NCBI GenBank assembly: GCA_049967655.1
Contig: JBMFSH010000020.1
Coordinates: forward strand, 1 to 46,907
From: Acidobacteriota bacterium
GTDB lineage: Bacteria; Acidobacteriota; UBA4820; DSQY01
Length of the DNA stretch: 46,907 nt
Direction: 5' to 3'
Part shown: one piece after another, positions 3,440-13,465 of the stretch
How the letters are laid out: each line of letters begins with the position of its first letter
How positions within the stretch are numbered: the stretch's first letter is position 1
Made by a program: the position numbers and the translations under genes
Notes under the pieces: model-generated
Told to the model about the DNA's origin: nothing
The model's database searches: none
The model's input: the letters and a program-made list of their open reading frames with translations, nothing else

Positions 3440-4429
3440 ATGCACATCGGGTCACAAGAGCTGGATTTGCTTAGGTCCGGCCGGAAATTTGTTCTGACGA
3501 CCCACGTCTCCTCGGACGGCGATGGGGTGGGGAGCCAGCTTGCGCTCGCGAGGGGGCTGCGGCAGTTGGGGTGCGACGTGACGATTATCAATCCTACGCC
3601 CGTACCGGAAAACCTCCGCTTTCTTCTCAAACGCGCGTCGGAAATCCAATCGGTTCGAGAGATGGAGTCGCCGGAGCGCTACTTCACGGGAGCCTTGACC
3701 GTGGTGCTGGACATAGGTGCCTTCGAGCGTTTGGGGGACGTGCTTCCGCTGGCCCGTCTGAGCGAAGGAATTCTTGTCGTGGACCACCACCGCATGGAGA
3801 GGACGAGCGGAGTCCACTACCTCCTGGACACGCAGGCCTGTGCCACGGGCGAGGTTACGGCGAGGATCCTGGAGGAGCTGAGCATACCCTTGACCTTGGA
3901 GCTAGCCGAACCCCTCTACGTGGCCATCCACACGGATACCGGTGGCTTCCGTTATCCCGGCACGACCCCCGAAACGCACCGCCTCGTAGCTCGGCTACTC
4001 GAAGTAGGCGTGGATCCGCAGAAGGTGTACACCGAGCTCTTCGAGCGGCTGACGCCCCTAAGGCTCTGGTTGACGAGTGAGGTGCTCTCAACCGTGCGCA
4101 TTTCTCCCGGCGGAAAGGTAGCCTGGCTCCAAATCCGCCAGGCGGTGCTGCAGAAGTACGGAGCCCGGATGGAGGATGCGGACGATATGGTCAACTTCAC
4201 GCTTGAACTGGACGGAGTCTTGGTCGGCTTCTACTTCAAGGAACTGGGCGATGGCATGACGAAGGTTTCCTGCCGATCGAGGGGGGATTTCGCCATCGAC
4301 AAGTTCGTGAGCCCTTGGGGAGGCGGAGGCCACCAGCACGCGGCGGGGGTGAAATTGAACCTCCCCATCGAGGAGGCAACGAAGATGTTGGTCTCTGCCG
4401 CCACCGATGTTTTGGAGAAAAAGGGTTGA
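3440..4429 (+). CDS. nrnA: DHH/DHHA1 bifunctional oligoribonuclease/pAp phosphatase
   Basis: Motifs TH..DGD, DHH, DTGGF, SCRS, GGGHQHAAG; AAGGAG SD upstream. Confidence 0.9.
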   Translation: MHIGSQELDLLRSGRKFVLTTHVSSDGDGVGSQLALARGLRQLGCDVTIINPTPVPENLRFLLKRASEIQSVREMESPERYFTGALTVVLDIGAFERLGDVLPLARLSEGILVVDHHRMERTSGVHYLLDTQACATGEVTARILEELSIPLTLELAEPLYVAIHTDTGGFRYPGTTPETHRLVARLLEVGVDPQKVYTELFERLTPLRLWLTSEVLSTVRISPGGKVAWLQIRQAVLQKYGARMEDADDMVNFTLELDGVLVGFYFKELGDGMTKVSCRSRGDFAIDKFVSPWGGGGHQHAAGVKLNLPIEEATKMLVSAATDVLEKKG

Positions 4430-5055
4430 AGCGAAGAATAGGGGTGCTTTTGACCGGGTGCGGCGCGTACGACGGCACGGACCCGCAAGAAGCCGTTTTG
4501 GTCATGCTCGAGATACAGGCCGCCGGGCATGAATTGGTGCCCTTGGCCATGGATTTGCCTCAATTCCATACCGTCGATCACACTACGGCTCAGGAGGTGG
4601 AGGGGGAAAGCCGCCAACAAATGCTGGAAGCGGCGAGGCTTGTGCGCGGTAAACTATATTTACTTGAAGAAATATCACCTAAGTTACTGGATGCGTTAAT
4701 TATTCCTGGTGGTCAAGGTCCCGTCAAGAATTTGCTGACCGGCTTTGCTACCATGCAGGAGCGGAGCGCCGTGGAGGCCGTAGGCAGTTTTCTTCGCGCC
4801 GTCCACAACTCTGGAGGGCTCATTGGCGCCCTCTCCCTCGCGGAATTCGTGGTGAGTTCGGTGCTGGGCCCCTGGCCGGAGGGGAAAGGTTGCTTTGATC
4901 TTCAACAGGACGAGGTCCTTGTGGACGCACAGCGGGGGATCTACCTCACTCCGGGTTATACGCTCGCCACCTCACTACCGCACCTGCACACAGGAATCCA
5001 TAACCTGTGCCAAGCCATCTTTCGGGACCTGGAAAGGCGGGATGAGAGCCAATGA
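4426..5055 (+). CDS. ElbB/ES1-like (DJ-1/PfpI superfamily) protein
   Basis: N-terminal LLTGCGAYDGTD..EAV, 'EAARLVRG' and 'IIPGG.G..KNL'. TTG start overlaps the nrnA stop (TTGA). Confidence 0.8.
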   Translation: MKRRIGVLLTGCGAYDGTDPQEAVLVMLEIQAAGHELVPLAMDLPQFHTVDHTTAQEVEGESRQQMLEAARLVRGKLYLLEEISPKLLDALIIPGGQGPVKNLLTGFATMQERSAVEAVGSFLRAVHNSGGLIGALSLAEFVVSSVLGPWPEGKGCFDLQQDEVLVDAQRGIYLTPGYTLATSLPHLHTGIHNLCQAIFRDLERRDESQ

Positions 5056-5696: not shown

Positions 5697-5933
5697 CTAC
5701 TCCAGAGGTTCGAGCGCGGGCAAACCCTCTGTCGTGTTCGTAACCCGGCTTGGAATACGCTCCGGCTCGTCGCCCAGACGTTGCTCCCACAGCTCCACGC
5801 GCATGTCCTTATCTTCCAGCACCTCACGGGCGTCCATCCAGTCATCTGGGGCTGTCGGAATCAAGGGCGCGGTGGGAGGCTGTGTGGCAGTCCCCCGTCG
5901 CCGCCGCTTTGAGCGTACCTGAATTGCTGGCAT
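5697..5933 (-). CDS. Small hypothetical protein (78 aa; basic N-terminus, acidic C-terminus)
   Basis: ATG with AAGGAG SD just upstream; AT-rich promoter-like region at about 6030-6125. No family recognised. Confidence 0.55.
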   Translation of the reverse strand: MPAIQVRSKRRRRGTATQPPTAPLIPTAPDDWMDAREVLEDKDMRVELWEQRLGDEPERIPSRVTNTTEGLPALEPLE

Positions 5934-6131: not shown

Positions 6132-6166
6132 GAAGACTCCAGGCGGAATTACCGCCTGGAGTCTTC
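6132..6166. terminator. Perfect 15-bp hairpin, likely terminator of the trxA operon
   Basis: GAAGACTCCAGGCGG-AATTA-CCGCCTGGAGTCTTC directly downstream of the FmdB gene; no long U-tract. Confidence 0.7.
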
Positions 6167-6190
6167 GTTAGCCTGTCCGCGGTTTGTTAG

Positions 6191-6209
6191 AGGCCGCTCA
6201 CGGCGACCT
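6191..6209 (-). promoter_or_regulatory. Candidate bacterial SECIS for the FmdB UGA at 6225-6227
   Basis: AGGUCGC-CGUGA-GCGGCCU: 7-bp stem with one G-U pair, GU in the loop, loop starting 22 nt after the UGA. Confidence 0.55.
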
Positions 6210-6215
6210 GCGGTA

Positions 6216-6440
6216 TCAGCCCGCTCAGCTGAAGCCCGATCCACATCCCGAGGAGGAGCCCCCTGAGCTAAAGCCCCCGGAGGTCGCTGTCGCGGCTCCG
6301 CAGGCACCGGGCACGGATATCAGTTTGTGCACCTTCTCCGAACCGCAGTTCGGACAAGGGGGTGGGGGCGCATCCGAACGGAAGATGATCTTCTCGTAGC
6401 GGAGAGCGCAATTTTCGCATTGGTACTCATAGATTGGCAT
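6216..6440 (-). CDS. FmdB-family zinc-ribbon protein; possible selenoprotein (71 aa if UGA 6225-6227 is stop, 74 aa ending ...GCGSGFS-U-AG if Sec)
   Basis: MPIYEYQCENC...CPNCGS...KLIS is the FmdB signature, followed by a Gly/Ser tail. In-frame TGA GCG GGC TGA followed by a SECIS-like hairpin. Family call is firm; Sec is inferred. Confidence 0.85.
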
Positions 6441-6456
6441 CTGAATTCGCTCACTG

Positions 6457-6783
6457 TTAGAGGACCTTATCCAATAACCCCTTAAGTGCGGCCTTAGAAA
6501 GTGCACCCACGTGTTGTTGCGCCACTTGCCCATTTTTGAAAATGAGCAGCGAGGGAATGGCCATGATGCCAAACTGTGCCGCCACGTTCTGGTTCTCATC
6601 CACGTTGAGTTTGGTGAACTTGACTTTATCACCGAGTTCGCCGGACAGCTCTTCCACAACTGGGGCTACCATTCGGCACGGCCCGCACCACGGCGCCCAG
6701 AAATCCACAAGGACGGGCTTGGTGGAGTCGAGAACCTCGGACTGAAAAGAGCTATCCGTCACTTCGGTTACGTTTTTCGCCAT
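6457..6783 (-). CDS. trxA: Thioredoxin
   Basis: VLVDFWAPWCGPC active site; AAGGAGG SD 7 nt before ATG 6783. Confidence 0.97.
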   Translation of the reverse strand: MAKNVTEVTDSSFQSEVLDSTKPVLVDFWAPWCGPCRMVAPVVEELSGELGDKVKFTKLNVDENQNVAAQFGIMAIPSLLIFKNGQVAQQHVGALSKAALKGLLDKVL

Positions 6784-6934
6784 CACTTGGCCTCCTTACT
6801 TCCGTGGGACCGGACCCGGTCCCGCAGGATTGCGACATTCAGGTGTCGACCCCCATCTTCGGCAGCAGGAAGCGGTTGAGGAGATACCATGCCGCAATCA
6901 CAGCGCCGTAGATAAGCAGGTCTCGTCCCGTCAT
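6752..6934 (-). CDS. Small single-TM membrane protein, putative selenoprotein (60 aa, UxxxxC)
   Basis: MTGRDLLIYGAVIAAWYLLNRFLLPKMGVDT-(TGA 6839-6841)-MSQSCGTGSGPTEVRRPSDGEKRNRSDG-TAG. The ATG overlaps the DUF2892 stop (ATGA coupling) and a strong SECIS-like hairpin follows the TGA. Confidence 0.65.
6801..6829 (-). promoter_or_regulatory. Candidate bacterial SECIS for UGA at 6839-6841
   Basis: UCC-U-GC-GGGACCG-GGUC-CGGUCCC-AC-GGA: perfect 7-bp upper stem, GGUC loop (E. coli fdhF SECIS loop region AGGUCU), bulged U, loop starting 22 nt after the UGA. Confidence 0.7.
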
Positions 6935-7116
6935 TGAAGCCCTGCCTTTTTCAGAATCCACATCATGGGACACCAGTTGGTGAGGGAGGACTGAAACAGG
7001 TTCAGCCCCACAAAGGCGGTAAATAGATACCACAGCGGACTTACCCAATATCCTAGCGCCACCGAGAGCAAGATGAACAAGCCTGCAATTCCTCTCAGCG
7101 CACGGTCTACGCTCAT
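6931..7116 (-). CDS. DUF2892 (YgaP-like transmembrane domain) protein
   Basis: DRALRGIAG...FVGLNLFQSSLTNWCPM with two TM helices and the conserved CP; GGAGG SD. Confidence 0.9.
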   Translation of the reverse strand: MSVDRALRGIAGLFILLSVALGYWVSPLWYLFTAFVGLNLFQSSLTNWCPMMWILKKAGLQ

Positions 7117-7176: not shown

Positions 7177-7209
7177 CCCCAATCCCGCGATGGAACGGGG
7201 GAAAGAGCA
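7177..7209 (-). repeat. Internally deleted copy of the dispersed repeat, inverted relative to copy 2
   Basis: CCCCAATCCCGCGATGGAA+CGGGGGAAAG joins the two ends of the reverse-complement repeat (CCCCAAATTCCGCGATGGAA...ACGGGGGAAAG) with about 30 nt missing. Confidence 0.6.
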
Positions 7210-7308
7210 TGGAAAGCAGGCGGAACAATCCATTGAAGAAGAGGCCCTTGTCACCTACAAGGGATTGGGGCGCCCTCGAGCCAAGGGCGAGGGCACCAAG
7301 GGCGGGGT

Positions 7309-7380
7309 GGAGACAATGCCTTTCCCCCGTGAACCCGAGCGGTGGCCGGAGGCACCCGCGTTTCCATTGCGGAATTTGGG
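7309..7380 (+). repeat. Dispersed ~72-bp repeat, copy 2
   Basis: GGAGACAATGCCTTTCCCCCGTGAACCCGAGCGGTGGCCGGAGGCACCCGCGTTTCCATTGCGGAATTTGGG; 5 mismatches to copy 3 over 72 bp. Confidence 0.95.
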
Positions 7381-7461: not shown

Positions 7462-8718
7462 TCACCGGACGAGAAGCTTCCGGATCTCTTGTAGGGCGCC
7501 GAGAAGAACGTCCACCTCCGCCCGGGTATTGTACAAGTAGAGTGAGGCGCGAAGGGTATTGTCCATGCCGAGGTGTGTCATCAGTGGTTGGGCACAGTGA
7601 TGGCCCGAGCGCACGGCTATGGCGAAGCGGTCCAGGAGGTTAGCCGCGTCGTGGGGATGAGCGCCCTCCACGTTGAACGAAAACACCGCCAGGTGGTCCC
7701 CAGCGCGGTGCCCATACAGCGTAAGCCATGGACATTTATTCAACTGCTCCAGGGTGTAGTGCTCAAGTTCTTTTTCATATTGATAAACATTTTCCATGCC
7801 GATGGAAGAGAGGTAATCGACGGCTGCGCCCAGCCCGATGCCCTCCGCAATGGCGCTCGTACCCGCTTCGAATTTCCACGGCAGCTCGTTCCAGGTGGAG
7901 CCCTCGGTGGTAACGGTGGCGATCATGTCGCCACCGGTCAAGAAGGGCGGCATCTCCTGCAGGAGCGCCTTGCGCCCGTAAAGGAACCCGATCCCCGTGG
8001 GGCCAAGCATCTTGTGGCCAGAAGCCACGAAGAAATCGCATCCCAGCGACTGCACGTCGACGGGCAGATGGGGGGTGGATTGGGCTCCGTCCAACAGCAG
8101 AAGGGCACCGACCCCCTGGGCCATGGCTCGAATCTCTTCAACCGGGTTGATGACGCCGAGGACGTTGCTGGCGTGCACCAGTCCCACGAGTTTGGTCCTG
8201 GTCGTGATCAGGCGACGCGCGGCCTCAAGGTCAAGGGTTCCCTGAGGGGTCACGGGGATGAACTTCAGGACGATGCCGAGCCTCTCGCGCAGCATTTGCC
8301 AGGGCACGATATCGCTGTGGTGTTCCATGAGTGAGACCACCACCTCATCCCCTGCCCTCAAGGCGGCCTGCCCCCAGGTCATGGCCACAAGGTTGAGCGC
8401 TTCGGTGGCGTTCCGCACGAAGACAATTTCACGCCAAGACTTGGCGTTGATGAAGCGCGCCACCTTCTTGTGCGCATCCTCGTAAGCCACCGTGGCTTCA
8501 TAGCCGAGGGTGTGGATCGCCCTGTGGATGTTGGCGTTGTACTCCGTTAGGTAGGAGACCATGGCCTCCACGACCTGCCGGGGGCGCTGGGTGGTCGCCG
8601 CGTTGTCCATATAAATCAGCGGATGGTCGTGCACCCTGCGCTCGAAAATTGGGAAATCCCGGCGCACGGCCTCCACGTCGAAGCCGTTCGGGGCTATCCG
8701 TAAAGCTGACTCGGTCAT
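7462..8718 (-). CDS. sufS: Cysteine desulfurase SufS (group II)
   Basis: YMDNAATTQ, MEHHS, SGHKMLGPTG (PLP lysine), RSGHHCAQP. Start ATG 8718 overlaps the Rieske stop. Confidence 0.96.
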   Translation of the reverse strand: MTESALRIAPNGFDVEAVRRDFPIFERRVHDHPLIYMDNAATTQRPRQVVEAMVSYLTEYNANIHRAIHTLGYEATVAYEDAHKKVARFINAKSWREIVFVRNATEALNLVAMTWGQAALRAGDEVVVSLMEHHSDIVPWQMLRERLGIVLKFIPVTPQGTLDLEAARRLITTRTKLVGLVHASNVLGVINPVEEIRAMAQGVGALLLLDGAQSTPHLPVDVQSLGCDFFVASGHKMLGPTGIGFLYGRKALLQEMPPFLTGGDMIATVTTEGSTWNELPWKFEAGTSAIAEGIGLGAAVDYLSSIGMENVYQYEKELEHYTLEQLNKCPWLTLYGHRAGDHLAVFSFNVEGAHPHDAANLLDRFAIAVRSGHHCAQPLMTHLGMDNTLRASLYLYNTRAEVDVLLGALQEIRKLLVR

Positions 8719-9035
8719 GGCTGTGACTCCTTGAGGAACACCTTGCCTTCGACAATCCGGACTTCGCGGGTGGCAATCGCCTCGATGGCGGGCATGGACA
8801 CGGCCTCTCCCGTGGCCACGTTGAATCTGGCACCGTGGTGCGGGCAAACCCAGGCGTCCCCCTCCAGATGGCCTCCCTCCAGCTCCATATCCTGATGGGA
8901 ACAGAGATAGCCAAGCGCGAAAACCTCCTCGCCCCGGCGGACGAGCAGCACCTCCTCGCCACCCACGACCACGCGGAGCCCTTCGGGTCCGATATCATCG
9001 AGGGCGGCGACGGCTTCAAACCCCTCCATCGTCAT
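8715..9035 (-). CDS. Rieske-type [2Fe-2S] ferredoxin
   Basis: CSH...CPHHGARF Rieske motifs; 106 aa. Confidence 0.92.
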   Translation of the reverse strand: MTMEGFEAVAALDDIGPEGLRVVVGGEEVLLVRRGEEVFALGYLCSHQDMELEGGHLEGDAWVCPHHGARFNVATGEAVSMPAIEAIATREVRIVEGKVFLKESQP

Positions 9036-9463
9036 TCGTCCTCCTCCTCACCCGGCCAATGGGCCTGCCCATAAACCCCGGACTTGAGCACCTTGAGAGC
9101 CAGCAGGGCGCACTTCAGGCGCATGGGACCAATGGGGATGCCGAGGTTTTCCAGCATGTCGTCCTTGGTGAACTCCTTGACCCGTTCCAACGACTCCCCC
9201 TTCATGAGGTCCGTGAGGATAGAAGCGGCGGCCTGGCTGATGATGCAGCCCTTTCCCTCGAACTTGATGTCCTCGATGAGGCCGTCGCGAGTCTTGAGTG
9301 CGATGCGCATCTGGTCGCCGCAGGATGGGTTCCCCTCTTCGTGGACGATGTCCGCACCGGGCAGGGGGCCAAAGTTGTGAGGGTGCTTGTAGTGGTCCAG
9401 GAGCAGATCCATCATCAGCGGATCCACATCCAGGAGCTGGTTGGGATTGGGGATTTCCGTCAT
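9032..9463 (-). CDS. sufU: SufU/IscU-type Fe-S scaffold / sulfur-transfer protein
   Basis: DHYKHPHNFG, NPSCGD, GCIISQAAAS, RLKCALL. Confidence 0.92.
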   Translation of the reverse strand: MTEIPNPNQLLDVDPLMMDLLLDHYKHPHNFGPLPGADIVHEEGNPSCGDQMRIALKTRDGLIEDIKFEGKGCIISQAAASILTDLMKGESLERVKEFTKDDMLENLGIPIGPMRLKCALLALKVLKSGVYGQAHWPGEEEDE

Positions 9464-10683
9464 AGGTTCACCCTGTTCTCCAATAATGGGTCGAGGATCT
9501 GCGGCACAAAAGCAAAAGGAGCCCTTCCGAACAGGCTCTCTAGAAAGCCCACCACCAGGAGCCGGCGCGCGTGCTCTGGACTCAAGCCCCGGCTCTCCAG
9601 ATAGTAGAGCTGCTCCTCATCCACCTGCCCGACGCTCGCCGCATGGGAGGCCTTCACGTCGAGGGCCTTGATCTCCAACCCGGGAATCGAGTCCGCCCGG
9701 GCCTGAGGTGAGAGGAGCAGGACGTGGTCGGACAGGAGGGCCTCGCTGAAATTGGCCTCCTTTTCCATGAGAAGGTTGCCCGTGAAGATGGCTCGGGACG
9801 AGCCCGCGGCCACCGTCTTGACCTGGACGTCGCTGCGCGTGTGGTGGTCCAGCATGCGCACCCGGCTGTCGAGGTCGAAGTGCTCCTTTCCGGTGGAAAG
9901 GACGAGGTGGCTCTCCGTCCAGCTCGCTCCGGGAGCGGTCAGATCCGCCTGCATCCGGGTCACGCCCCATCGCCCCCCCATCCACGCCGAAAAGATCTCC
10001 ACGGCCGCGTCCTTGCCCACCTTGAAGGAGGCCGACAAGTGGTGGTGCGAGCCATTTCCTTCGTGGAGAAGGAAGAGCTTCAACCTGGCCCCGTCGGCGA
10101 TCCGCATTCCCAACGTGCTGATACGGAAAGAATCCGCCTCCGCCAGGTCCCTGAAATGAAGGAAGAGGGAAAACTCCTCCCTCTCCCCCACCTCCAGGAA
10201 CAGAGGCTCCAGAACGAGGCCGTCGGCCGCCTCCAGGGCGAGGTAGGCGACGCCTCCATCGGGCTGTCCGGAGGGCCTCTTCAGGTAATACCCCTGCTGC
10301 CACGCGGCCATGACCAAGTGATCCCATGCGGTATCCGGCAGGGGCACCCTGTCGAAGAAGGGGCGATCCCCGCGGAGCACCTCGCCGAGAGGATGGACCC
10401 ACTGCGAAACAGCCTTCATGGACGCTAGGCCCTCAACCCCGGAAGGGGCGGCCAAGCTGGGCGAGGGGGCCGCAGGAGAGAGCCGCTTCCAGTTCAAGTT
10501 CAGACGGGAGTATCGGCCCAGAACCGGAGGCGTTTCTCCGAAGCGCAGGAGGTGATTCTTGCGAGCCTCCAGCAACCACTCGGGCTCTCCCCGAGACCGT
10601 GAGGTCTCCCGAATGGCCTCCAGATCAAAGGGAGCGACAGCTTCCACCCCTTTCCCCAATCCGTTCGCGTGGCCCTGGGTCAT
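9460..10683 (-). CDS. sufD: Fe-S assembly protein SufD
   Basis: C-terminal [35 protein letters not shown]; follows sufB. Confidence 0.9.
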
Positions 10684-12086
10684 CCCACCGCCCCTTCCAT
10701 CTCGAGCTGAATGAGCCGGTTGAGTTCGATGGCGTATTCCATGGGGAGCTCCTTGGCGAAGGGTTCGATGAAGCCTTGGACGATCATGGCCGTGGCGTCC
10801 GATTCGGAGAGGCCCCGGGACATGAGGTAGAAAATCTGCTCGTCGCTGATCTTGCCTACCGTGGCCTCGTGAGCGATGGCCACCTTGTCCTCATCGATTT
10901 CCATGGTGGGGTAGGTATCCGAGCGGCTTTGAGGGTCCAGCATGAGCGCGTCGCATTTGACCGAGGCCTTCACGCCGGTGGCGCCCTTCGCCACCTTGAG
11001 CAGGCCCCGATAGCTGGTCCGCCCCGCCCCCTTGCTGATGGACTTGCTCGTGATGGTGGAGCTGGTGTTGGGAGCCTTGTGGATGATCTTCGCGCCCGCA
11101 TCCTGGTGCTGGTCGCTGGTGGCGAAGGCGATGGAGAGGATGGTGCCGCGCGCATGCTCACCCACCAGGTAGATCGAAGGGTACTTCATGGTGAGGCGCG
11201 ATCCCATGTTGCCATCCACCCACTCCATGGTGGCCCCCTCGTAGGCGATGGCCCTCTGGGTCACAAGGTTGTAGATGTTGTGGGCCCAATTCTGGATGGT
11301 CGTGTATCGCACCTTGGCCCCTCGCTTCACGAAGATCTCGATGACCCCCGTGTGCAGGGACTTGGTGGAGTACTGCGGGGCCGTGCATCCCTCGATGTAG
11401 TGGAGCTGAGCGCCCTCATCCGCGATGATGATGGTGCGCTCGAACTGGCCCATGTTTTCCGAGTTGATCCGGAAGTAGGCCTGGAGGGGGATGTCCAGCT
11501 TCACTCCCTTGGGCACGTAAATGAAGCTGCCCCCGGACCAGCAGGCCGTGTTCAGCGCGGCGAACTTGTTGTCCTCGGGCGGAACCAGGGAGGCGAAGTG
11601 CTCCCGGAAGAGCGCTGGGAACTCTCGAAGCCCCGAGTCCGTATCCAGGAAGATGACGCCCTTCTTGGCCAGGTCTTCGTGGATGGAGTGATACACCATC
11701 TCCGACTCATACTGCGCGCCAACGCCCGCCAGGAACTTCCGCTCCGCCTCGGGAATTCCCAGTCGGTCGAAGGTTTTGCGGATGTTTTCCGGGACGTCCT
11801 CCCACCGGTCCTCCCGCTTGTCGCTCGGCTTGATGTAGTAGGTGTAGGCGTCGAAATCCATCTCCGAGAGGTCTCCGCCCCACCGAGGCATGGGCTTTCC
11901 CAAGAACACCTCATAGGCGCGTAGACGGATGTCGGTCATCCAGTCCGGCTCCTTTTTATGGCGCGAGATGTCCATGATCGTCTCCCGAGTCAACCCCTTC
12001 GCCGAACGGTACACGGCGCTTTCGGGATCGATGAAGTCGTACTTGCTCTGATCTAGGTCGAGAGCGCTCGTGGTTTTGGCGTTCAT
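10680..12086 (-). CDS. sufB: Fe-S assembly protein SufB
   Basis: [54 protein letters not shown]. Confidence 0.97.
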
Positions 12087-12152
12087 TACCTGCTCCTTGT
12101 ATGGCGAAGGTTCCCCCGCCGGAGCCTGGCCCCCGCGGAAGGCACGGAAGCT

Positions 12153-12932
12153 CTACACGACATTGAATTCCTTGAGGATCCAATCGTAGCCCTTCTGCTC
12201 CAGTTCTCGTGCCAACTCCATGCCGCGCGAGCAGAGAACCTTGCCGGCGGCCATCACGTGCACCCTGTCGGGCTGAAGGTACTCCAGAATCCTGGGGTAG
12301 TGGGTGATGATCAGCGCCGTGAACTCCGGGCCCTTGAGGGACCGTATGCCCTCGGCCACGACTTTGGTGGAATCTATGTCCAGCCCCGAGTCGATCTCGT
12401 CCATGATGACCATCCGCGGGGCGAGCATCTGCATTTGCGCGATCTCAACGCGCTTCTTTTCGCCGCCGGAGGCCCCCACGTTCAGGTGACGCATGGCGAA
12501 ATCCGCCGGCATCTTGAGGCTCTCCAGCGAGGCGTTCAGCCGCTTCCGGAAAGCCAGGATCTCCTTGGGGTTCTTCTTGGCGTTGCCGTCTGCCCCACTC
12601 CGACCGGCCTGATAGGCATTCCAGAGAAAGTGCGAGAGAGTGACTCCCGGAACCTCCACCGGGTACTGATAGGCGAGAAAAAGGCCCTTGCGAGCTCGTT
12701 CGTGAACCTTGAGGGAGAGAAGATCTTCCCCAAACAGGTACGCGTCTCCCTGGGTCACCACGTAGCGGGGATGTCCCATGAGCGTATGGGCCAGTGTGGT
12801 CTTGCCGCTGCCGTTGGGGCCCATGATGACGTGGATCTCTCCCTTGGGGACTTGCAGATCGATGCCCTTCAGGACCTCTTTTTCTTCGATGACCGCATGG
12901 AGGTTGCGGATATCAAGCGCCAGCTCGGGCAT
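12153..12932 (-). CDS. sufC: Fe-S assembly ATPase SufC
   Basis: Walker A GPNGSGKT, LAYQYPVEVPGV, SGGEKKR, DEIDSGLDID, ITHY. Confidence 0.96.
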   Translation of the reverse strand: MPELALDIRNLHAVIEEKEVLKGIDLQVPKGEIHVIMGPNGSGKTTLAHTLMGHPRYVVTQGDAYLFGEDLLSLKVHERARKGLFLAYQYPVEVPGVTLSHFLWNAYQAGRSGADGNAKKNPKEILAFRKRLNASLESLKMPADFAMRHLNVGASGGEKKRVEIAQMQMLAPRMVIMDEIDSGLDIDSTKVVAEGIRSLKGPEFTALIITHYPRILEYLQPDRVHVMAAGKVLCSRGMELARELEQKGYDWILKEFNVV

Positions 12933-13380
12933 ACTTCCTCTCCTTCTCCTTCAACTGGGCCAGCCTCTGTTCCCCAGTCGGTTGGGGAAGGAGGTCTTTC
13001 AACGTCGTCTCTCGGAATATCTCTTCGACGGTATTCTTGAGCCTGTGCCACACAGATACCTGTGTACATCCCTTGAAAAACATGCAATTTTTCTGATCTT
13101 CCATGCATTCGACGAGCCGCATCTCACCCTCGATGACCGCATAAACCTGCATGAGGGTGATCTCCGCTGGAGAGCGCCGGAGGCAGTAACCGCCATCCCG
13201 CCCCAGGGTGGAGCTGACCAGCCCGCCCCGCACCAAGTTGCGCATCACCTTGGCCAGGTAGGAGAGCGGAACGTTCTGCGATTCCGCGATGGTCCTCAGC
13301 TCAGCAGAAGCGCCATCGGGGAGGAGCGCGAGGAACACCAAACTCCTCACCGCGTAATCAAACCCTTTGCTCAGTTGCAT
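12913..13380 (-). CDS. Rrf2-family (IscR/SufR-like) Fe-S-sensing transcriptional regulator
   Basis: wHTH with GRDGGYCL and three C-terminal Cys (C-x6-C-x5-C). Start ATG 13380 with GGGAG SD; first gene of the suf operon. Confidence 0.92.
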   Translation of the reverse strand: MQLSKGFDYAVRSLVFLALLPDGASAELRTIAESQNVPLSYLAKVMRNLVRGGLVSSTLGRDGGYCLRRSPAEITLMQVYAVIEGEMRLVECMEDQKNCMFFKGCTQVSVWHRLKNTVEEIFRETTLKDLLPQPTGEQRLAQLKEKERKYARAGA

Positions 13381-13406
13381 GAACTTCTCCCAAAATCGAA
13401 CAATCA

Positions 13407-13465
13407 TGGAGTTAATGACTCCACGATTGAGGAGTTAATGTAACACCCGCCCCCTGGGCTGTCAA
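13407..13465 (-). promoter_or_regulatory. Sigma70 promoter of the suf operon with overlapping operator half-sites
   Basis: TTGACA (13460-13465), 17 bp, TACATT (13437-13442) with extended TG. Half-sites GGAGTTA/TGACTCC/GGAGTTA at 13408-13437 overlap the predicted start site. Confidence 0.75.

Follow-up and report, generated by a model that had tools for sequence, protein, structure and literature searches.

About 119 families of prokaryotic selenoproteins were counted in a 2026 review, the available part of which gives the consensus for the bacterial selenocysteine insertion sequence (bSECIS) as a hairpin with a loop of 3–9 nt, a G at the first loop position and G or U at the second, a distance of 16–37 nt from the UGA and a minimum free energy of -7.5 kcal/mol or lower (PMC13188914). 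The FmdB selenoproteins published so far are, according to the accessible part of their description, two ocean-metagenome reads with selenocysteine (Sec, U) in the first zinc-ribbon CxxC, as UxxU and CxxU (PMC2398784). On the sulfur side, the parts of the literature at hand report that rhodanese genes cluster with sqr-pdo operons and that thioredoxin is a sulfane acceptor (PMC9163753), and that E. coli YgaP joins a rhodanese to a DUF2892 membrane domain (PMC4730233). In the current work, we describe a cluster of four genes in a 46,907-nt stretch of DNA from an Acidobacteriota bacterium (contig JBMFSH010000020.1; hereafter the window, to which all positions refer). The cluster lies entirely on the minus strand at 6132–7116 and encodes a DUF2892 protein, a small predicted membrane protein (hereafter the peptide), the thioredoxin TrxA and an FmdB-family zinc-ribbon protein. 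From sequence comparison, decoding of the in-frame UGA of the peptide gene (codon 32) as Sec is very probable and decoding of the first UGA of fmdB (codon 72) is probable, and we see about an even chance that the cluster is a membrane-side carrier for reactive (sulfane) sulfur, recycled by thioredoxin, with these two UGA-recoded proteins.

The peptide UGA was studied with a 20-sequence profile searched against 401 Acidobacteriota genomes, 113 of which matched. From 115 loci examined, a weak second match without the motif (L088) was dropped, leaving 114, and L030 and L039 were not counted; since related loci are not independent samples, locus counts are not to be taken as probabilities. The codon at the site was TGA in 113 of the 114 loci and TGT in one, with TAA and TAG absent, and the next in-frame stops of the same genes were mixed (TGA 64, TAG 31, TAA 17; n = 112). 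The spacing of the following gene also favours recoding: among 43 loci where such a gene could be identified, it begins within 10 nt of the readthrough stop or overlaps it in 38, and in none does it come nearer than 52 nt to the UGA. The UGA form was present in 112 of the 401 genomes sampled. The profile also matched 1874 representative database proteins, and the residue at the UGA site among the best 150 of these was Cys in 114, Trp in 19, the protein end in 12 and another residue in 5 (five rows were read by eye), Trp probably representing TGA read under another code. The Cys forms make up a large family whose motif, T-C-M-S-G-x-C, is contiguous through the site; the titled homologues, from Deltaproteobacteria, Planctomycetaceae, Myxococcales and others, are nearly all called 'hypothetical protein'. 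A Cys stands at +4 to +7 after the UGA in 90 of 113 peptides, so the UxxxxC motif of the preliminary description of this DNA is common, though not universal. One subgroup (L070–L086, L127, L144) reads T-U-A-V-P; the downstream Cys is missing from its normal position, and the hairpin stands closer to the UGA. Translation restart at an ATG after the UGA was considered as a separate explanation and rejected: ATG follows directly in 57 of 113 peptides and is missing there in 56, and the Cys homologues run on through the site.

Each of the two UGAs is followed by a 7-bp stem whose GU-containing loop (GGUC; CGUGA) starts 22 nt downstream, as originally reported and as reproduced here with our own scoring scripts rather than bSECISearch. 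Folded as isolated stem-loops, the two reach -12.8 and -10.0 kcal/mol, and hairpin 1, with its GGUC loop at 22 nt and its energy of -12.8 kcal/mol, falls within the bSECIS consensus. It is the position and form of the hairpins, not their stability, that exceed chance: a stem of at least 7 bp with a GT loop at 16–25 nt follows only 10 of 1180 ordinary TGA stops of the genome (0.8%). Under a looser definition (stem of at least 6 bp, G in the loop, 16–25 nt), a hairpin was found at 98 of 113 TGA loci, compared to 4 of 72 distinct Cys loci, these being chosen by their Cys pattern, and 89 of the 1180 ordinary stops. The pairs of the peptide hairpin interchange among C-G, G-C, U-A and A-U. Its loops come in two lengths, and one fixed register gives 53% paired; when both registers were allowed, 5 or 6 of 6 pairs formed in 63 of 84 TGA loci versus 7 of 70 Cys loci treated by the same procedure.

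The fmdB gene near the peptide gene was found to behave in a similar manner. Its first stop is TGA in 39 of 39 loci and is followed by one or two codons and a second stop (TGA 28, TAG 9, TAA 2), such that the reading frame ends in U-X-X-stop in 29 and in U-X-stop in 10. A hairpin at SECIS distance follows the first UGA in 33 of the 39 and the second in none. In this non-coding sequence the first five pairs are retained in 32–35 of 37 loci, with C-G, G-C and U-A swaps, in an alignment that was anchored on the best stem and is therefore partly circular. Of the 96 FmdB matches from a phylum-wide search, 50 contain an internal TGA; TAA and TAG were not seen inside any of them. Among 20 further FmdB copies, 11 end in F-x, with TGA in all 11 and a hairpin in 10; the other 9 are paralogues with Cys-rich tails and mixed stops (TGA 5, TAG 2, TAA 2), and the two genomes in which selA was not matched are represented among them. 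All 25 aligned members share a Cys that shortly precedes the UGA, and all four zinc-ribbon residues of the window protein, whose TIGR02605 match is above cut-off, are Cys (C-E-N-C at the first CxxC). A double-Sec ending (U-A-G-U) was also tried and rejected; the second codon is TAG or TAA in 11 of 39 loci and has no hairpin at SECIS distance. For both genes, the preliminary description had looked to TAA or TAG at the recoded position as evidence of ordinary stops, and neither was seen at the 114 peptide loci, the 39 fmdB genes near the peptide or the 11 further F-x copies. Its expectation of conserved hairpins held for peptide and fmdB loci alike (98/113 and 33/39). Its expectation of Cys or TGA among homologues held fully for the peptide (TGA in 113 of 114 loci; Cys in 114 of the best 150 database matches) and for FmdB only as regards TGA, no Cys being found.

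The host genome (3.14 Mb, 66.7% GC, 99% complete) contains the full Sec machinery whose presence the preliminary description had left to be checked: selA, selB and selD lie above cut-offs, tRNA-Sec (selC) was found, and selD itself has an in-frame TGA. Across the phylum, selA was found in 300 of 401 sampled genomes and, by comparing lists by eye, in 109 of the 112 that carry the TGA-form peptide; the remaining three all have tRNA-Sec above cut-off, two of them with selB also. One unpublished genome (G052) contributes to the number of genomes searched and to the selA count alone. The UGA form is thus restricted to Sec-using genomes (112/112 with selA or tRNA-Sec), and in the only genome with the TGT form (G359, 99% complete) no selA, selB or tRNA-Sec was found above cut-off. 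The original proposal that both UGAs act as Sec codons thus finds support in their conservation, in the SECIS-type form of the hairpins and in their occurrence alongside the Sec trait.

The peptide itself has a best 19-residue mean hydropathy of 1.70 and a charge bias of -0.6 before and +1.4 after the hydrophobic segment, which suggests a single helix with an N-out/C-in predicted topology. Pfam and NCBIfam scans of the peptide and its homologues gave no family, one of 37 members having a chance-level Pfam match, and a search for solved structural relatives returned nothing better than a generic helix (best E 0.37). No match was obtained among plasmid sequences, nor in a single-sequence protein search, where the word index is limiting and where the profile search did give matches; in the ESM Atlas, the peptide matched an unnamed cluster of 123 members. 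In a profile–profile comparison (A4/A5), the amphipathic C-terminal end of DUF2892 (I-L-x-K-x-G) resembles the peptide segment I-L-P-x-x-G-x-x-T-C/U at 37.8% over 17 columns. The peptide may derive from a DUF2892-like half, a lead and not a homology.

The layout of the cluster agrees with the four tightly packed genes first described (Table 1). The TGA of the DUF2892 gene overlaps the ATG of the small open reading frame (ORF) as ATGA (6934–6931), the readthrough stop of the small ORF (TAG, 6754–6752) lies 32 nt inside trxA (ATG 6783), and the trxA stop (6459–6457) is separated by a 16-nt gap from the fmdB ATG (6440). In fmdB, the first TGA (6227–6225) is followed by A-G and a second TGA (6218–6216). 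The 15-bp hairpin said to close the cluster is a real inverted repeat (6166–6132; stability z -8.1 versus shuffles), although closure by a terminator is not established because the repeat has no U-run and no terminator was called there.

Table 1. Positions of the features of the cluster within the window.
Feature	Position	Strand	Remarks
DUF2892 / YgaP-like two-helix membrane protein, 61 aa	6931..7116	-	PF11127 E 7e-13; Cys49 (TGT) in N-W-C-P
Small protein predicted to span the membrane by one helix; readthrough length 60 aa, predicted Sec32	6752..6934	-	Motif G-V-x-T-U-M-S-x-x-C; without Pfam/NCBIfam family
In-frame UGA of small protein (codon 32), predicted Sec codon	6839..6841	-	TGA in 113/114 loci
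SECIS-type hairpin 1: 7 bp, GGUC loop, 22 nt after UGA	6806..6823	-	
Shine-Dalgarno-like AAGGAGG of trxA, within readthrough part of small ORF	6791..6797	-	Sequence
Thioredoxin TrxA, WCGPC, ordinary Cys form	6457..6783	-	TIGR01068 131.8 bits, cut-off 96.8
FmdB-family zinc-ribbon protein, 74 aa on readthrough, predicted Sec72	6216..6440	-	TIGR02605 and PF09723; tail C-G-S-G-F-S-U-A-G-stop
First UGA of fmdB (codon 72), predicted Sec codon	6225..6227	-	TGA in 39/39 neighbouring and 11/11 further F-x-ending copies
SECIS-type hairpin 2: 7 bp including one G-U, CGUGA loop, 22 nt after first fmdB UGA, beyond second stop	6191..6209	-	
Perfect inverted repeat of 15 bp without U-run, occurring once in the genome; may be a 3' end or a stabilising hairpin	6132..6166	-	

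The wider gene context was examined at 79 distant Sec loci with 3–4 kb flanks (another 12, with flanks of 1.5 kb, were counted separately) and at 80 Cys loci, many of them short. Within the taxonomic order of the window, the arrangement peptide–trxA–fmdB is present in 23 of 23 loci and is preceded by DUF2892 in 21. Beyond that order the picture changes. The neighbours at the 79 distant loci are DUF2892 (29), AcrB-type RND proteins (21), ArsR (17), rhodanese (16), MBL-hydrolase (15), DUF302 (15), FmdB (11), Usp (11), TauE (9), thioredoxin (8) and SQR-like proteins (5), and those at the 80 Cys loci are DUF2892 (25), thioredoxin (24), rhodanese (11), DUF302 (9), TauE (7) and MBL (7), with no FmdB. 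These assignments come from scanning 23 of 48 recurring neighbour clusters against families, most of the others being apparent shadow ORFs; 'persulfide dioxygenase' is our reading of MBL-rhodanese matches and 'SQR' our reading of Pyr_redox_2 matches. One or more sulfur-handling markers (DUF2892, rhodanese, MBL-hydrolase, TauE, DUF302, SQR-like) turn up at 41 of the 79 distant Sec loci and at 38 of the 80 Cys loci versus 3.0% of random 8-kb windows of the host genome. This enrichment is overstated, since the genes used as queries had themselves been picked out at these loci and only one genome served as background. The four-gene set was not sustained as a general unit, being complete only within one order (21/23), with trxA beside the peptide in 8 of 79 distant loci; the proposed link to the SUF operon likewise proved local, sufS lying nearby in 16 of 23 close loci versus 1 of 79 distant ones, with a repeat in between in the window. 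The association of DUF2892 with a conserved Cys and with rhodanese fared better, Cys49 being invariant in 21 aligned neighbours and rhodanese–DUF2892 fusions occurring in distant loci; the window protein is a stand-alone DUF2892 of 61 aa. Overall, the recurring neighbours speak for a role in handling sulfane sulfur and not for a relay of fixed composition or a connection with SUF.

Several arrangements at Cys-form loci were noted by eye. In L170, L175 and L176, the peptide follows a thioredoxin-like gene and a small membrane protein with C-x-x-G-x-C-P-I, and in L169, L183, L223 and L247 the peptide stands between a small zinc-finger anti-sigma-like ORF, upstream, and DUF2892, downstream.

A carrier for sulfane sulfur is suggested by the recurrence of DUF2892, rhodanese, persulfide-dioxygenase-like, TauE, SQR-like, ArsR and RND genes. 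In the mechanism that we propose, SelB would bind each hairpin and direct Sec to codon 32 in the peptide and to codon 72 in FmdB, the second fmdB UGA serving as the stop. The peptide, in its predicted N-out/C-in orientation, would place Sec just under the inner membrane face, where the selenolate could accept sulfane sulfur from DUF2892 or rhodanese-type donors and form a selenosulfide or perselenide-type intermediate, to be resolved by the Cys five residues on where that residue is present. The loaded selenolate would be reduced by TrxA, or its sulfur passed to oxidation or export modules where these are encoded, and the FmdB protein could be the equivalent in solution, its zinc ribbon anchoring a flexible C-x5-U tail. 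As a tentative extension, peptide and DUF2892 may represent a widespread, unannotated selenium arm of sulfane-sulfur trafficking, with the Sec-only FmdB tail protein as soluble partner, that moves persulfide sulfur between the membrane, thioredoxin and export or oxidation modules.

Besides the overstated enrichment, several observations weigh against this interpretation, either in its recoding or in its functional part. The stability of the two hairpins is ordinary compared to shuffled sequences (z -0.83 and -0.66). No Cys form of the FmdB tail was found among the best 120 of 1768 matches, which all end at the F-x site, so the recoding case for FmdB lacks the usual Cys/Sec pairing and is weaker than that for the peptide. 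The downstream Cys is absent in 23 of 113 peptides, which means that a two-residue redox motif is not essential. As to function, markers of the sulfur, RND or ArsR kind are missing altogether from 29 of 79 distant loci; the window cluster itself lacks rhodanese, PDO, SQR and TauE genes; and the RND (21/79) and ArsR (17/79) genes are also compatible with metal handling.

That last point leads to a different function, in which both selenoproteins bind soft metals or metalloids (Cu, Hg, As, Zn) via the selenolate and pass them to an efflux system. In addition to the RND pump and ArsR genes at distant loci, this would suit the zinc ribbon that FmdB already has and its paralogues with Cys-rich tails, and the available part of the 2026 review lists Sec as a possible metal ligand in SaoB, SaoC and UXX-star proteins (PMC13188914). 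However, no merA, merT, arsB, arsC or copA was present among the 23 neighbour clusters scanned (of 48), and the ArsR genes often lead runs of rhodanese, MBL and TauE genes; we consider metal handling unlikely. Somewhat less likely again is that the two proteins serve thioredoxin as redox partners at the membrane in general thiol-disulfide exchange, without any particular role for sulfane sulfur, a proposal close to the relay of the preliminary description. The adjoining trxA in 23 of 23 loci of the window's order and the thioredoxin genes at 24 of 80 Cys loci are in keeping with it, as are a DsbD/CcdA-like ORF that the Cys-form peptide precedes, by eye, in L170 and L175, and one database protein, P0100, in which the Cys-form peptide is fused to thioredoxin (a single sequence from a single contig, possibly an assembly or calling artefact). 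At the distant Sec loci, however, thioredoxin occurs in only 8 of 79 versus 41 of 79 for sulfur-transfer genes, and the second Cys is not always there (23/113 without it).

The remaining alternatives concern the UGAs rather than the function of the proteins. The UGA of the small ORF could be mainly a selenium-dependent translation switch, with readthrough bringing ribosomes to the start of trxA (or fmdB) and tying its translation to the selenium supply. The readthrough tail is poorly conserved past the downstream Cys and, at 38 of the 43 loci mentioned above, ends at or inside the next gene; in the window, the hairpin stands just upstream of the trxA Shine-Dalgarno sequence. Yet the downstream gene differs between loci, and the large Cys-form family keeps the residue, the motif and the neighbours without the hairpin, which argues that the residue matters for the protein and makes a mere switch improbable. 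That the UGAs are plain stops of a 31-aa membrane peptide and a 71-aa FmdB, with hairpins that serve mRNA stability or arose by chance, is very improbable, for although TGA makes up 62% of ordinary stops in the host genome (1187/1926), the best 120 database FmdB matches all end at the site without Cys and an ATG next to the UGA, present in 57 of 113 peptides, could pass for a restart, TAA and TAG number zero in 114 peptide and 50 FmdB loci (AT-rich genomes included), the T-C-M-S-G-x-C homologues are contiguous and have lost the hairpin, 56 of 113 peptides have no such ATG, and TGA forms occur only in genomes with Sec machinery.

If the carrier proposal and the predicted recoding are true, the peptide would rank among the smallest selenoproteins of the membrane, with one helix and with Cys counterparts in other phyla. 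It is common yet cut short at the UGA and labelled hypothetical in databases. The predicted Sec would mark the working residue of a family without a Pfam model, and would provide a handle on the DUF2892- and DUF302-type genes that recur in sulfur-detoxification loci. The FmdB tail, for its part, is out of reach of Cys-homology methods, because no Cys form was seen.

Upstream of the cluster, a SUF-type run assigned by eye from translations (7462–13407, minus strand) comprises an Rrf2/IscR-like regulator, sufC, sufB, sufD, sufU, a Rieske-type ferredoxin and sufS. Between sufS and the DUF2892 gene lies a repeat of about 204 bp (7177–7380) that resembles a miniature inverted-repeat transposable element (MITE). 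Its terminal inverted repeats are imperfect and its target duplication measures 5 bp; the genome holds 15 paired copies of 140–316 bp, and 29 and 57 matches for its two ends. On the other side, a 78-aa acidic ORF (5697–5933, minus strand) without a family match is preceded by a sigma-70-like site (6127–6098), and similar ORFs follow the cluster in relatives. An ElbB-like DJ-1/PfpI protein (4315–5055, plus strand) falls below its NCBIfam cut-off.

Compared to known bacterial selenoprotein genes with UGA and bSECIS, the two predicted genes share the consensus hairpin, the presence of selABCD and, for the small protein, Cys homologues, and they differ in that the small protein has no Pfam or NCBIfam match and no counterpart that we could identify among the 119 listed families. 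That table offers no entry recognisable as the peptide by domain or motif and, as we read it, no single-helix peptide with Sec at the membrane face (PMC13188914); a described family was thus not found for the small protein. NCBIfam selenoprotein models matched neither UGA site. The nine new deep-Sep families bear other names in the accessible part of their report and were set apart by name (PMC12013277); the NCBIfam models of the three 'hypothetical' ones were not matched by the peptide. No description of the motifs or the system was found in the literature, with Haft and Tolstoy 2025 and Deng et al. 2026 (groundwater candidates) outside this comparison and able to list them. The two predicted selenoprotein forms are thus uncatalogued in the lists compared (review table, NCBIfam).

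The homologous loci resemble sqr-pdo-rhodanese operons and YgaP, as far as the available parts of these papers describe them (PMC9163753; PMC4730233), in carrying rhodanese, rhodanese–DUF2892, MBL-rhodanese, TauE, SQR-like and ArsR genes, whereas the window cluster has the DUF2892 domain alone, with no rhodanese, PDO or SQR; no mention of a selenoprotein was found in those parts. With the published FmdB selenoprotein (TIGR02605), again as given in the accessible part of its source, the window protein shares the zinc-ribbon family and a predicted Sec, and it differs in having an all-Cys ribbon and a predicted Sec third from the end of a Gly/Ser tail (PMC2398784).

The FmdB tail also invites comparison with the UXX-star and KCU-star proteins. 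The UXX-star ending was reportedly defined by Haft and Tolstoy in 2025 as U-X-X-stop. The models of these proteins (NF041114, NF041211, NF041212, NF047649, NF033934) are not among the 20 families matched by the 25 aligned FmdB members, and the carrier here is different, a zinc ribbon with usually a single Sec. The likeness lies in the ending: the predicted Sec of FmdB stands 1–3 residues from the C-terminus, its SECIS lies beyond the stop, and the predicted end of the window protein, U-A-G-stop, fits the pattern U-X-X-stop.

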